A DNA stretch of 45,658 nt from Escherichia phage vB_VIPECOMC04, in sequence record PQ423993.1; one strand, written 5' to 3'. How positions within the stretch are numbered: position 1 is the stretch's first letter; every line of letters begins with the position of its first letter. A program made the position numbers and the translations under genes. Positions 14,340 to 18,855 of this stretch are shown in pieces. The notes below the pieces were generated by a model. The model was not told the origin of the DNA, searched no databases, and saw only the letters and a list, made by a program, of their open reading frames with translations.

Positions 14340-16530
14340 TTTATTATACCTGGATACCGAGACATTCTCCGAAGCAGACTTAAAGAAAGTCGGGTCGTAT
14401 GCGTATGCGGAGCACCCAACGACAGAGGTTATAATTTGTACATATGCCGTTGATGATGGCCCTGTAGAAATATGGGATTGCACTTCCGAACCTGTAATGC
14501 CGATAAGCCTCTGTGTGGCTCTCCGTAATGTTATGCGTGGGCGTATGAAAATCGTGGGCCATAACTTTTTAATGTTCGACAGGCTCGTCATGAAACACTG
14601 CTGGGACTTTGATATTCCTGTAGGCAACACCATTGATACGATGATTTGGGCGTTTCGTCACGCGCTGCCGGGTTCCCTCGATGCGTTGTGCGAAGTGCTG
14701 GGCGTGTCAGCAGACAACGCGAAAGACAAACGAGGCAAGGCGCTGATTCAGCGTTTCTCTAAACCGACGCCGAAGAACTACAAAATCCGTCGCTACACCG
14801 CTGAAACACACCCGGACGAGTGGGCACTGTTCATCAAATACGCCGTGAGTGACATCACCGCAATGCGTGAAGTCTTCCATAAGCTGCCGCGGTGGGGTAA
14901 CTCCGAGTTAGAAGACCGTGTACTGGAACTGGACCAGTTAATCAACGACCGCGGGTTTAAGGTTGACGTTGCTCTGGCAGAAGCCGCGATTGAAGCTGTG
15001 GAGAAGCACAAGGCACAGTTACAGGAAGAAGCCCAACGCAAATACGGCGGCTCGCTTACCGGAAAGGACTTCCTTCCTATTCTGCGTGAACTTGCCCCAG
15101 CGCACCGCATACACAACGCACAGAAGTCGACGCTTAACGACCTGTTGGCGGACGATGATTTACCGGACGATGCTCGCACGATTATCGAAATGCGCCTCGG
15201 GGCCGCATCCACCGCGTCAACGAAATATAACCCATTGCTGTTGGGCCGCTCATCGGACGACCGCCGCCGGGGTTGTTTACAGTACGGTGGGGCAAAACGC
15301 ACTTTGCGGTGGGCGGGTAAAGGCTTCCAACCACAGAACCTGGCGCGCGGGTACTATCACGATGATGAACTGGATAAAGGCATTTCAGCGTTACTTAAAG
15401 GCCGGGCACACCGCCGTTTTGATGTAGCCAAGCTAACGGCATCGACGGTACGTAGCTGCATCATACCGGAAGTGGGGCATAAGTTTGTTGTTGCCGATTA
15501 CTCTAACGTTGAGGGTCGTGGGCTTGTGTGGTTGGCAGGCGAAGAAACCGCGCTTGATACTTTCCGCGCCGGGTTGGATATTTATTGCGTAACTGCAGGT
15601 AAGATGTTTGGCATGGACCCCGACGATATTAAGAAAAACTTTAAGGAAATCAGACAGATAGGCAAGGCTTGCGAACTGGGCCTCGGTTACGAGGGAGGCG
15701 TCGGAGCATTCGTTACGTTCGCCAAAAACTTAGGCCTCGACCTTATTGAGATGGCTAAAACAATGGACGGTACGTTCCCCGACCACATCTGGGCCGCTAC
15801 CGCACGCGGGTATGAGTGGGCGCGCATCCAGGAAGCCAAGCGCCCCCCGCATCCAGGTGAGAAGGATGACCGACCATCGTATATTCTGGACAAGAAAGTG
15901 TGGCGCACCTGCGACGCAATCAAGCGTATGTGGCGCGAGTCACACCCGGAAACAGTAGCGTTCTGGCGCGACCTCAAAGACGGTATTTTAGCCGCTGTAA
16001 GAAATCCGGGTCGTGAATTTTGGGCGGGGGCGCATCTGCGCAAGAATGGCGAGCGCGCTATCCGAATCTGGAGAACAGTAGAAACCGATTCATCCGGTAG
16101 GAAGGTTCCCGGTTGGTGGTTGTGTATGGAGTTGCCGTCGGGCCGTATCCTCTCGTATCCAGGAATCGGCGTTAGCGTGACAAAAGAAACAGACGAAGAC
16201 GGACGGGTAAACACGAATGTGCGAATCAAGTACCAAGGTGAAAACCAGTTAACCCGCCAATGGACTACCCTGTACACCCACGGCGGCAAAGCCTGCGAAA
16301 ACATTGTTCAGGCGCTGTGCCGTGATTTACTCGCATATGCGATGGTTAATGTTGAGGGTGGCGGGTATCCAATCGTGCTTTCGGTACACGATGAACTGGT
16401 ATGTGAAACTCCAGATACGCCGGATTACACGGTGCCTGAGCTGGAAAAATTAATGTGCACGTTGCCTGAGTGGGCAGAAGGCTTCCCTCTTGTCGCGGAA
16501 GGTAGCGAAATGTACAGATATGCTAAATGA
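14332..16530 (+). CDS. family A DNA polymerase with 3'-5' exonuclease
   Basis: Exo I YLDTETFS; motif A DYSNVEGR; motif B RQIGKACELGLGYEGG; motif C VHDELVCE. Confidence 0.9.
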   Translation: MTSLLYLDTETFSEADLKKVGSYAYAEHPTTEVIICTYAVDDGPVEIWDCTSEPVMPISLCVALRNVMRGRMKIVGHNFLMFDRLVMKHCWDFDIPVGNTIDTMIWAFRHALPGSLDALCEVLGVSADNAKDKRGKALIQRFSKPTPKNYKIRRYTAETHPDEWALFIKYAVSDITAMREVFHKLPRWGNSELEDRVLELDQLINDRGFKVDVALAEAAIEAVEKHKAQLQEEAQRKYGGSLTGKDFLPILRELAPAHRIHNAQKSTLNDLLADDDLPDDARTIIEMRLGAASTASTKYNPLLLGRSSDDRRRGCLQYGGAKRTLRWAGKGFQPQNLARGYYHDDELDKGISALLKGRAHRRFDVAKLTASTVRSCIIPEVGHKFVVADYSNVEGRGLVWLAGEETALDTFRAGLDIYCVTAGKMFGMDPDDIKKNFKEIRQIGKACELGLGYEGGVGAFVTFAKNLGLDLIEMAKTMDGTFPDHIWAATARGYEWARIQEAKRPPHPGEKDDRPSYILDKKVWRTCDAIKRMWRESHPETVAFWRDLKDGILAAVRNPGREFWAGAHLRKNGERAIRIWRTVETDSSGRKVPGWWLCMELPSGRILSYPGIGVSVTKETDEDGRVNTNVRIKYQGENQLTRQWTTLYTHGGKACENIVQALCRDLLAYAMVNVEGGGYPIVLSVHDELVCETPDTPDYTVPELEKLMCTLPEWAEGFPLVAEGSEMYRYAK

Positions 16531-17042
16531 TGATGGGGTGGTTTATGAGAGATTTAATTAATTGGCATGACCATTTCTACTACGAACCTGACACGGGGAA
16601 GATACGATGGAAGTATTCCCCGAGACACAGTATAAACGCCGGAGACGAAGCCGGTAGTCCAAGTAAGAGAGGATACATCTGTATCGTCGTCAGAGGGGTT
16701 AGTTACAGGGCTAATCGTATCGCATGGGGGATGTATAACAATGACCGTTTAGGGCCTGATGATGAAGTAGACCATATAAATCATATCCTGGATGATAATC
16801 GTGCATGCAACCTTCGGAAAGTATCCCGTACTGATAATAACCGAAACGCATCTCGCAGAAAAGATAACAAGTCAGGTATCACTGGTGTGCACTGGAACGC
16901 ACGGGCGGCTAAATGGAAAGCAGGTATATTCGTTGACGGTAAACTTATATTCCCGGGCCACCATGACAATATATTTGACGCGGCTTGTGTACGGAAATCC
17001 GCGATTGTTCGCTACGGCTTTCATGAGAATCACGGAGGTTAG
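16527..17042 (+). CDS. HNH homing endonuclease with AP2 domain
   Basis: HNH core EVDHINHILDDNRACNLR plus AP2-like C-terminus; overlaps the DNA polymerase stop. Confidence 0.8.
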   Translation: MMMGWFMRDLINWHDHFYYEPDTGKIRWKYSPRHSINAGDEAGSPSKRGYICIVVRGVSYRANRIAWGMYNNDRLGPDDEVDHINHILDDNRACNLRKVSRTDNNRNASRRKDNKSGITGVHWNARAAKWKAGIFVDGKLIFPGHHDNIFDAACVRKSAIVRYGFHENHGG

Positions 17043-17043
17043 A

Positions 17044-17175
17044 ATGCTAAGTAAACTGATTATCGCGATACTGGCGGGATTCGCCGCCGGTGTCTATTGT
17101 CACGAGGGCCAATACGGCATGATGGTCGCCGTATTGGGTATGTTCATCGCAATTTATCTGTGGGTGCTGGAATGA
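17044..17175 (+). CDS. small membrane peptide (43 aa)
   Basis: ATG 17044 with GGAGG upstream; hydrophobic throughout. Confidence 0.3.
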   Translation: MLSKLIIAILAGFAAGVYCHEGQYGMMVAVLGMFIAIYLWVLE

Positions 17176-17257
17176 AAATCTACTGGTTCTACGAAGAAGA
17201 CTGCCGAATCTGTCCGCGCTGCGGTATTGCGCATACGAAACGGGAGGGGTGCGTATT

Positions 17258-17410
17258 ATGAGAATGTTCGTATTCGGGTCGATAGTAACCATGCTCGCAC
17301 TGTCACTCGGTGCGGGAATAGCTGCTATGTTCTGTTACGGCCTGTTCTTTCAGTTTGCCGGTGTTGCCATTCTAGGCGGGGCTTTCCTTACCTGGATGCT
17401 GCGGTCATGA
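17258..17410 (+). CDS. small membrane peptide (50 aa)
   Basis: ATG 17258; two hydrophobic segments; its stop overlaps the VRR-NUC start (ATGA). Confidence 0.3.
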   Translation: MRMFVFGSIVTMLALSLGAGIAAMFCYGLFFQFAGVAILGGAFLTWMLRS

Positions 17411-17739
17411 CTAAAGAGGGGCGCATCCAGAAATACGCAAAAGAGCGATTCGAGGCCATTGGTGGCCTCGTTCGTAAATTGTCGTACGAAAACAGAGTGG
17501 GAGCCCCTGACCTGCTGGTAATTCTACCCGGCGGCATCGTCTGGTTCGTCGAGGTTAAGAAAGACGAAAACACGAAGCCAGACCCGCACCAGCTACGGGA
17601 ACATGAGAGATTCCGAAAACGTGGAGTTAATGTTTTTGTCGTTGGTTCGTTTAAACAGGTTGACGCCCTAATAGCATACTATTATAGTTATCACATACCC
17701 CAACAATATAAGGAATTGAGAAATGAAATACGAATATGA
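17407..17739 (+). CDS. VRR-NUC domain nuclease
   Basis: GAPDLLVILPGGIVWFVEVK fits the PD-(D/E)XK VRR-NUC signature; start taken at ATG 17407 within the track ORF. Confidence 0.6.
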   Translation: MTKEGRIQKYAKERFEAIGGLVRKLSYENRVGAPDLLVILPGGIVWFVEVKKDENTKPDPHQLREHERFRKRGVNVFVVGSFKQVDALIAYYYSYHIPQQYKELRNEIRI

Positions 17740-17914
17740 CCGCAAGCCCGCACGTGACATCGTACCGGGCGACATGATTTTCAACGTTAAGACACGTCGT
17801 CCTGTTGCCGTTGATACGGTGTTCGTCGAGTCGAATGGTAAACTGGTTATCGAAGATGCGACCGGTAACGTTACGGCGTTCGGGCGTAAAGAGCTGGTGC
17901 TGGTGGTGAAATGA
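17723..17914 (+). CDS. hypothetical protein
   Basis: ORF track. Confidence 0.4.
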   Translation: MKYEYDRKPARDIVPGDMIFNVKTRRPVAVDTVFVESNGKLVIEDATGNVTAFGRKELVLVVK

Positions 17915-18855
17915 ACTATTACAATGAGTGGGATAAAGGCGCAGCCGCGTGGCTGCGTGAATTAATAAAACAGGGTCACATACCTTTTGGAGTTGTAGAT
18001 GAAAGAAGCATTACAGAAGTTAAGCCAGAAGACCTCGACGGGTTCACCCAGTGTCATTTTTTCGCTGGTATCGGCGGCTGGCCTCTCGCGCTCAGACTTG
18101 CGGGAGTTTCGGAAAATACGCCTCTCTGGACGGGAAGCCCGCCTTGCCAACCGTTTAGCGCGGCAGGAAAGCAACTCGGACATTTCGACCCGAGACACCT
18201 CGCGCCGGTATTCCTTGACCTCATCAGCGAGTGCCGCCCTCCAGTCCTCTTTGGGGAACAGGTTGCGCCAGCAATTGCAAAATCGTGGATGTGCGATTTA
18301 CAAACTCATCTGGAAGGAGAAGACTACTCCGTCGGGTTTGCCGTACTCCCAGCTTGTAGCGTCGGTGCCCCGCACAAACGCGACAGACTGTTCTTCGGCG
18401 CGTACAACCTGGCTGAGTCCTTGTGCGCAGAACGGGACCGTGAACGGCTACACGGATTGGGAAAAAGTAATCAAACGCAAGGAAGCAGGACGGCAGCAGA
18501 ACCTACGGGACGTGGTTATTCTGGCGGCTTGGTCTACCCCGACAGCGAACGACTTCAAAGGGAGCGGAGAGACAGTGATTCGCAAGGACGGAAAGGACAG
18601 AACATTCGACAGGCTGGACTACTCAACGGAACAGGGACTGAAAATAACACAACCAATTCGGATAACAGTTTCTGGTCCGACGCTGACTGGCTCGGATGCA
18701 GGGACGGAAAGTTCAGGCCAGTTGAATCCGGCACATTCCCGCTGGCTAATGGGATACCCGCCAGAGTGGGACGATTGCGCGGTTACGGCAATGCCATCGT
18801 CCCGCAAGTAGCCGCTGAGTTTATAAAGGCATTTATGGGGGGTATTCATGTCTAA
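17911..18855 (+). CDS. DNA C5-cytosine methyltransferase (frame integrity questionable)
   Basis: FAGIGG (motif I), SPPCQPFSAAGK (IV), GEQV (VI), GAPHKRDRLFF (VIII) and C-terminal GYGNAIVPQVAAEF (X); the motif IX-like segment is in the overlapping +1 frame (see findings). Confidence 0.7.
   Translation: MNYYNEWDKGAAAWLRELIKQGHIPFGVVDERSITEVKPEDLDGFTQCHFFAGIGGWPLALRLAGVSENTPLWTGSPPCQPFSAAGKQLGHFDPRHLAPVFLDLISECRPPVLFGEQVAPAIAKSWMCDLQTHLEGEDYSVGFAVLPACSVGAPHKRDRLFFGAYNLAESLCAERDRERLHGLGKSNQTQGSRTAAEPTGRGYSGGLVYPDSERLQRERRDSDSQGRKGQNIRQAGLLNGTGTENNTTNSDNSFWSDADWLGCRDGKFRPVESGTFPLANGIPARVGRLRGYGNAIVPQVAAEFIKAFMGGIHV

Follow-up and report, generated by a model that had tools for sequence, protein, structure and literature searches.

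In the genome of Escherichia phage vB_VIPECOMC04 (sequence record PQ423993.1; we refer to the whole stretch that was analysed, 45,658 nucleotides, as the window), the conserved motifs of a C5-cytosine DNA methyltransferase at positions 17911-18855 are divided between two overlapping reading frames. Is this one gene that has been broken, or are there two genes that share the same DNA? An earlier note, made from the letters of the window, preferred the view that two frameshifts, one compensating for the other, mark a gene that has decayed or was mis-sequenced, and gave recoding as a less likely fallback. We found that both frames are conserved in other phages, that selection acts on them zone by zone, and that the inner frame has start signals of its own. 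Judging from these sequence features and by analogy with a described enzyme, we consider it likely (probability roughly 0.8) that the frames are nested genes, which we call alpha and beta, for an M.EcoHK31I-type C5-cytosine DNA methyltransferase composed of two polypeptides.

Methyltransferase motifs in two reading frames

Alpha (17911-18855; all features described here are on the + strand) codes for 314 amino acids and represents the catalytic large domain of a C5-cytosine methyltransferase. It contains motif I (FFAGIGGW, nucleotides 18058-18081, residues 50-57, which aligned to motif I of M.HhaI), motif IV (GSPPCQPFS, 18133-18159), motif VI (LFGEQV, 18247-18264), motif VIII (GAPHKRDRLFF, 18364-18396) and a motif X that was assigned by pattern only (GYGNAIVPQVAAEF, 18781-18822), in which residues 291-300 (GYGNAIVPQV) are invariant among relatives. 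Beta (17999-18811, 270 amino acids), a putative small subunit, lies wholly inside alpha in its +1 frame. It contains WSTPTANDFKG (18530-18562), in a variable region, and a motif IX-like segment, QLNPAHSRWLMGYPPEW (18719-18769), whose end is four codons (12 nucleotides) from the start of alpha's motif X in the other frame. The canonical collinear order in one chain (I-II-III-IV...IX-X) is therefore not what the locus has, because motif IX is in the other frame. The earlier note had placed all these motifs, and the open +1 frame, exactly as we found them, and its description of the middle third of alpha as low-complexity is also borne out: residues 165-253 are rich in G, R, S and N, with 21% hydrophobic residues as against 46% in the remaining protein.

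The Pfam model DNA_methylase (PF00145) matches alpha at residues 74-165 only (E = 3.4e-16; 60 bits, with a cut-off of 22). In PHROGs there is one family per frame: alpha belongs to phrog_363 (1e-86) and beta to phrog_1008 (1e-53). In a single BLASTP comparison, beta residues 241-258, containing QLNPAHSRWLMGYPPEW, matched the motif IX segment of M.HhaI, with 6 of 18 residues identical (E = 0.003). To judge how often such a long inner frame arises by chance, we shuffled the sequence while keeping alpha's protein and codon usage; a +1 open run of at least 270 codons was seen in only 3 of 20,000 shuffles, and by the same alpha-preserving shuffles the open length of the +2 frame is unremarkable.

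The earlier note was also right that motif I is unusually near motif IV in alpha: they are only about 20 residues apart, because segments resembling motifs II and III stand before motif I. Along alpha the II-like and III-like segments come first, then motifs I, IV, VI and VIII, then a linker free of constraint, and finally motif X. The motif II-like segment YYNEWDKGA and the motif III-like segment VVDERSITEV are both placed upstream of motif I (window positions 17917-18081, alpha residues 3-57). Using an alpha profile, we aligned residues 3-11 (YYNEWDKGA) to M.HhaI residues 37-45 (YSNEWDKYA, motif II), residues 35-66 to M.HhaI residues 2-33 (motif I), and residues 73-162 to M.HhaI residues 75-168. 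Taken alone, the motif II match is not significant (HMMER score -3), but its residues are nonetheless invariant among relatives. The TIGR00675 model aligned alpha residues 4-166 to profile positions 26-161. From these alignments, the N-terminus of alpha appears to be permuted relative to canonical C5 methyltransferases (II-III-I-IV).

Conservation of both frames and selection by zone

The window is from a Kagunavirus-like (Guernseyvirinae) phage of E. coli, and the region matches 354 phage records, of which the best is phage Ivi (95%). The layout is already partly recognised in some databases–for example, the records of phages K1G and K1ind3 have a coding sequence (CDS) called "putative C-specific methylase" with a nested CDS called "putative Mte8-like protein", and their RefSeq copies do likewise. 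The name Mte8-like may refer to M.EcoHK31I, an enzyme discussed below; the sole relevant paper only repeats the label. Most of the phage annotations that we inspected miss the layout and show alpha only, so that a large beta family with no Pfam model is overlooked, and in such records the out-of-frame linker of alpha may be taken for a target-recognition domain. A literature search on nested methyltransferase genes in phages found nothing specific.

By TBLASTN searches with the C-terminal 123 residues of beta we matched 234 phage records. We inspected nine divergent phages, with N15, P2-like, Casjensviridae and Vequintavirinae phages among them: N15 (gene 58), P2-like Salmonella phage SW5, Klebsiella phage ST101-KPC2phi6.1, Rhodobacter phage RcMrWorf, EBPR podovirus 2, Pseudomonas phage phita81A, Salmonella phage NINP13076, Erwinia phage pEp_SNUABM_08 and Dunaliella viridis virus SI2. 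In all nine an annotated methyltransferase CDS covers the match, which is read in the +1 frame of that CDS (offsets of 532, 523, 526, 94, 859, 475, 547, 493 and 634 nucleotides, all equal to 1 modulo 3), and this frame is open for 105-394 codons, or 230-394 codons when the truncated copy in Dunaliella viridis virus SI2 is set aside. The earlier note had envisaged homologs collinear with the single listed frame throughout, in which case the similarity in the +1 frame would be a coincidence; the homologs that we found are collinear with both frames. The beta proteins have a common architecture, beginning S.SA.LQ.SL..RLQ...GS.LYKLTWK...TPSGR....L.AS..RTS...GWPTP.A.D... and continuing, after the variable region, with ...AGW.TPTA.D.KG...RLT..GE.LTGS.AGM..GGQLNPAHSRWLMG.P.EWD.C.

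The truncated locus in Dunaliella viridis virus SI2 (NC_023841, positions 1107-1511) is a 134-residue remnant of a "cytosine methylase" that has the N- and C-termini of alpha without motifs I-VIII, and it keeps a 105-codon remnant of beta in the +1 frame. The record is filed under Caudoviricetes, with a green alga as the listed host.

We then assembled 76 loci: 64 from IMG/VR contigs, 11 from phage records, and that of the window itself. Across this set the median share of alpha's length over which the +1 frame stays open is 88%, compared to 18% for the +2 frame, and in 73 of the 76 loci the reading of alpha continues as far as motif X. In nearly all of them the leader of beta is open from about 50-106 nucleotides after the start of alpha, the main exception being N15 (193 nucleotides).

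The beta family is large. Its core is found in 9,882 clusters (50% identity) at E ≤ 1e-3, and in 6,065 at 1e-10. No Pfam domain is present in 124 of 126 diverse representatives. Searches with the window's full-length beta found no match in Pfam at E ≤ 1, and beta C-termini from four phages found none at E ≤ 10; nor was there any match to beta in NCBIfam, or any match to the beta profile among PDB sequences at E ≤ 10. Tryptophan-containing units of the form W-x-[ST]-P occur in the variable region, with two units in the window's beta (18410-18436 and 18530-18562), one to three in close relatives (one in K1G), and zero to eight over the beta family. Ten longer beta-like proteins were checked as candidate single-chain ancestors and rejected: two are read-through fusions and the other eight have no Pfam domain. 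The beta frame of P0256 runs on into a Dam N6-adenine methyltransferase, and that of P0260 into a DUF2800 / PD-(D/E)XK protein; these long open reading frames (ORFs) may be real fusions or may have lost a stop codon. A beta-like match of 4,633 residues proved to be a low-complexity artefact.

A putative start for beta lies at 17989-18001, where GGAG (17989-17992) is followed by a 6-nucleotide spacer and ATG (17999-18001), all within the alpha codons G27-V28-V29-D30-E31. In 63 of 65 relatives there is an ATG somewhere upstream of the core of beta, and in 52 of 65 there is one that is accompanied by a Shine-Dalgarno-like element (at least 4 nucleotides, at a spacing of 4-12 nucleotides). The starts recur at 80 codons, 74 codons and about 17-18 codons before the core. 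At the 74-codon site the element is often AGGAG at -8, formed by the alpha codons for E-R-S with the arginine encoded as AGG, and N15, which has its start about 17-18 codons before the core, has GGAGG at -8. Judging from these signals, beta may be translated from its own start within alpha.

To see which frame is under selection at each point, we threaded codons onto protein alignments of 64-65 non-identical relatives and, for each pair of sequences, sorted all nucleotide differences according to what they do in alpha and in beta. The rates given below are from 15 close relatives, with "silent in neither" denoting changes that alter the amino acid in both frames, and the identities are against distant relatives (n = 44). 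Upstream of beta (17911-17998) the pattern is that of an ordinary single-frame gene, with a rate of 0.066 for alpha-silent changes and 0.001 for alpha-changing ones, there being no beta frame to score. At 17999-18240 only alpha is selected: the rates are 0.048 for alpha-silent, 0.011 for beta-silent and 0.006 for silent-in-neither changes, and in the full set of relatives beta-silent changes (0.080) are about as frequent as silent-in-neither changes (0.088). Identity in this zone is 0.65 for alpha and 0.30 for beta. Because the last two rates are so similar and beta's identity is only 0.30, we regard the beta leader–about 75 residues, rich in S, R and L, which stays open–as unconstrained.

In the following zone (18241-18400) both frames are selected, with rates of 0.061 (alpha-silent), 0.023 (beta-silent) and 0.007 (silent in neither). 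Beta's identity here is 0.44 at an alpha identity of 0.54, as against the passive carry-over level of 0.30 in the preceding zone. Alpha has motifs VI-VIII in this zone, and beta has a conserved helix and hairpin, LQxSLxxRL...GSxLYKLTWKxxxTPSGxxxxxLxASxxRT. At 18401-18660 the situation is reversed relative to the leader, and beta is selected while alpha is not: the rates are 0.041 (alpha-silent), 0.087 (beta-silent) and 0.048 (silent in neither), and it is the third codon position of beta that varies most. Alpha-silent changes are no better tolerated than silent-in-neither changes, so we regard alpha as unconstrained in this zone. Both frames are again selected at 18661-18808, with rates of 0.060 (alpha-silent), 0.037 (beta-silent) and 0.021 (silent in neither), and identities of 0.67 for alpha and 0.58 for beta. 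In this zone beta reads RITxSGxxLTGSxAG...QLNPAHSRWLMGYPPEW, and alpha reads FWSDADWLGCRDGKFRPVE...FPLANGIPARVGRLRGYGNAIV, with motif X from 18781.

The G/R/S-rich linker of alpha is nevertheless free of stop codons in all 26 diverse loci that were compared. By beta-preserving shuffles the chance of this is 0.001-0.6 for each locus, and the summed log10 P-value over the 26 loci is about -31 if they are assumed to be independent. There is a need to keep an unconstrained linker open only where translation of alpha goes on to motif X. Both frames therefore stay open beyond what a single fused product would need, which fits read-through of alpha together with initiation of beta far upstream of its core.

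The two-chain reading and its rivals

We compared the locus with M.EcoHK31I of E. coli HK31 (Lee, Kam & Shaw 1995), relying on the passages of PMC2836561 and PMC3404938 that describe it. According to those passages, the alpha chain of M.EcoHK31I has motifs I-VIII and X; its beta chain has motif IX and is encoded wholly in another frame of the alpha gene; and the chains must associate for activity. When the beta starts were removed by silent changes the M.EcoHK31I alpha gene gave no methylation, and co-expression of the chains from separate plasmids restored it. The first 42 or so residues of its beta chain are dispensable, and Met codons 17 and 26 are alternative starts (PMC2836561, PMC3404938). 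The likeness to the window is in the class of enzyme, in the nesting of beta inside alpha in another frame, and in the same split of motifs between the chains, and the dispensable beta N-terminus with its internal starts has a parallel here in the leader that is free of constraint and in the start sites that recur among relatives. If the plasmid names M38 and C23 refer to mass, the chains would be of about 38 and 23 kDa, near the sizes in N15 (331 and about 214 residues) and in the window (314 and 270 residues). M.EcoHK31I differs in being part of a restriction-modification system, whereas we saw no recognisable restriction enzyme in the seven neighbouring ORFs of the window that were scanned. 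Another natural heterodimeric C5 enzyme, M.AquI, is split inside the variable region (PMC3404938). Its motifs are divided in order, with I-VIII along with some of the variable region on one chain and the rest with IX-X on the other, and that source does not describe its genes as nested. In the window, unlike M.AquI, the large chain retains motif X, and the coding sequence of the small chain is nested in the other frame.

If the locus works in the same way as M.EcoHK31I, alpha would be translated straight through the motif II/III-like segments, motifs I, IV, VI and VIII, a floppy linker and motif X, giving the catalytic large domain that binds S-adenosylmethionine, and a floppy loop in the place that the small domain occupies in a single-chain enzyme. 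Beta would be initiated in the +1 frame at its own ATG and ribosome-binding site within alpha. Its leader of about 75 residues would be dispensable, and the conserved helix and hairpin that follow (residues 76-122) are a candidate docking element, probably contacting alpha. The variable region with its W-x-[ST]-P units, together with motif IX, would be the counterpart of the small domain with which a single-chain enzyme recognises DNA; we infer that beta, and not alpha, holds the target-recognition region. The chains would then assemble non-covalently into an active enzyme that methylates the phage DNA, which presumably allows it to escape host restriction.

The decayed or mis-sequenced gene that the earlier note preferred would have the same appearance. 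Two compensating indels in a single-chain methyltransferase are expected to leave just this layout, with the +1 ORF as a remnant, and the middle third of alpha does look out-of-frame, low-complexity and unconstrained. However, a pseudogene would gather stop codons in both frames, whereas here beta is under purifying selection, as alpha is outside its linker, and the joint chance of the linker staying open is about 1e-31. The layout also recurs in hundreds of phage records and in distant, independently sequenced phage families, N15 included. We can therefore give this explanation hardly any credence as an account of the present gene; the arrangement may nonetheless have arisen long ago through two compensating frameshifts.

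Recoding, the fallback of the earlier note, would take the form of a programmed double frameshift: ribosomes would start on alpha, move into the beta frame by a +1 shift once past motif VIII, translate the variable region and motif IX there, and shift -1 to reach motif X, making a single chain. The order of the motifs along the DNA (I-VIII, variable region, IX, X) is indeed that of a single-chain enzyme, and motif IX ends only 12 nucleotides before motif X. There are also rare natural in-frame fusions of the N-terminal part of alpha to beta, in P0251, P0112, P0253 and L081 (the last being IMG/VR 2916627578_000005). Their junctions fall at different places, though–after motif VIII in L081 and P0253, after motif VI in P0112 and after motif IV in P0251–and all of them end at the beta stop codon without regaining motif X. 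With four different junctions and no motif X, the fusions look like sporadic indels; they could represent mutants with indels, faulty assemblies or variant forms of the enzyme. Shifting ribosomes would have no need of a beta frame that is open over 17999-18240, or of an alpha frame that is open over 18401-18660. Two zones are selected in both frames, with no sharp switch from one to the other, and beta has its own start codon and Shine-Dalgarno element. We found no -1 heptamer of the form X XXY YYZ in the beta frame between motif IX and the beta stop codon, and +1 sites were searched for less than exhaustively. M.EcoHK31I, moreover, functions as two separate chains (PMC2836561). Recoding is thus unneeded and fits the locus less well than two chains do, and we think it very improbable.

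The alternative to which we would give a little more room, while still thinking it unlikely, is that beta is a protein of separate function (e.g. in DNA binding or anti-defence) overprinted on the methyltransferase, and that alpha alone is an enzyme of low specificity. The failure of beta to match Pfam or PDB entries is in keeping with this, as is the fact that alpha retains all of the catalytic and cofactor motifs. It would leave alpha without a constrained variable region or a motif IX, however, and the motif IX-like segment at the end of beta occupies the very place that motif IX should have. Beta is also nested in this same methyltransferase family in 9 of 9 phages, and the alpha chain of M.EcoHK31I is inactive by itself once the beta starts are removed (PMC2836561).

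Several points weigh against a two-chain enzyme of the M.EcoHK31I type. Its two chains are known here from their genes, and the kinship to M.EcoHK31I was judged by layout and published description, not by sequence. The assignment of motif IX in beta depends on its pattern and on a weak match in BLASTP (E = 0.003), and beta goes unrecognised in Pfam and PDB sequence searches. The AlphaFold models of both chains are poor because the alignments were shallow, consisting of close relatives only, and so lend no support to a fold or an interface: beta (62 sequences) has a mean predicted local distance difference test score (pLDDT) of 45, with only residues 80-120 reaching about 77, and alpha (44 sequences) has a mean of 35. 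The loci were collected with alpha as the query, which biases them towards an intact alpha, and the substitution counts are pairwise and uncorrected for shared ancestry, so they are to be read as patterns and not as P-values. Lastly, according to the literature the target-recognition domain of M.EcoHK31I belongs to alpha; at the present locus it is beta that has the constrained variable region, and the spacer between motifs VIII and X of alpha evolves without amino acid constraint. The published placement may simply reflect the position of the VIII-X spacer.

On the two-chain reading, a further and more tentative idea is that beta is a modular, exchangeable specificity subunit in which the W-x-[ST]-P units are tandem target-recognition modules; we regard this as possible rather than probable. 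Since nothing constrains the amino acids of alpha's linker, a module could be gained, lost or exchanged, in steps of a multiple of three bases, with no harm to the catalytic chain. Orphan C5 enzymes of the SPR and phi3T type in Bacillus phages have several target-recognising modules arrayed in the variable region, and are thought to give protection in this way from many restriction systems (PMC12707154). The variable number of units in beta (zero to eight), as possible modules, resembles this array, but the Bacillus phage enzymes are single polypeptides read in one frame and the window uses two. If beta is modular, the nested layout would let phages change or broaden their protective methylation quickly, and the target-recognition domain of this enzyme class would be in the small chain and not, as stated for M.EcoHK31I, in alpha.

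Neighbouring genes, significance and locus variants

The genes around the locus form a replication module: DUF2800 / PD-(D/E)XK, an Enc34-type single-stranded DNA-binding protein, DNA polymerase A, HNH, a weak VRR-NUC match and an SNF2 helicase. Because no restriction enzyme is recognisable among them, the methyltransferase is probably an orphan phage enzyme. Between DNA polymerase A and the methyltransferase there is an ORF for an HNH_3 endonuclease (16527-17042, E = 6e-6) and a weak VRR-NUC match (17227-17739, E = 8e-4, under the Pfam cut-off). The stretch of phage Ivi that matches 16527-17739 is annotated as small hypothetical proteins and a "nuclease".

In Rz/Rz1 and other nested phage genes, one gene lies in the +1 frame of another and the products cooperate. 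The overlap in the window is much longer than that of Rz/Rz1, at about 810 nucleotides, of which only about 300 are constrained in both frames. It ranks among the longest nested pairs of same-strand genes in phages, and with its alpha-only, beta-only and dual-coding stretches it makes a good natural model of how overlapping genes share sequence. K1-type Kagunavirus phages are candidates for therapy, and whoever recodes the gene has to take both frames into account. Should the specificity be set by beta, a comparison of beta modules with phage methylomes could yield a recognition code for an abundant group of anti-restriction methyltransferases.

A few loci depart from the common layout. In two IMG/VR contigs (3300045988_050163 and 3300045988_074615, positions about 600-2040) alpha is 478 residues long, due to an insert of about 500 nucleotides between KFRPVE and IPARVARLRGYGNAIVPQ. 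The insert carries an ORF for an HNH endonuclease in the beta frame, just past the beta stop codon, and the alpha frame is open throughout, so that a second gene is nested in alpha. In three others (L035, L038 and L083, i.e. IMG/VR 2974755584_000001 and relatives) the beta frame continues for about 440 nucleotides past the end of alpha, in fusion with an endonuclease VII / HNH-like module (CAICG...HVDHCH...CRGCN), after which there is a second, partial copy of the C-terminus of alpha (VAAEFIKAFM); this looks like the insertion of a homing endonuclease at the 3' end of the gene. Finally, two loci (L025 and L041) have a one-base change in the run of six T's before motif I (window positions 18055-18063, CAT TTT TTC), which puts the first 51 codons of alpha out of frame. 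The beta ATG then reads into motif I and onward, and the +1 relation between the frames is retained downstream. This change in length could be genuine variation or an error made in sequencing the homopolymer.

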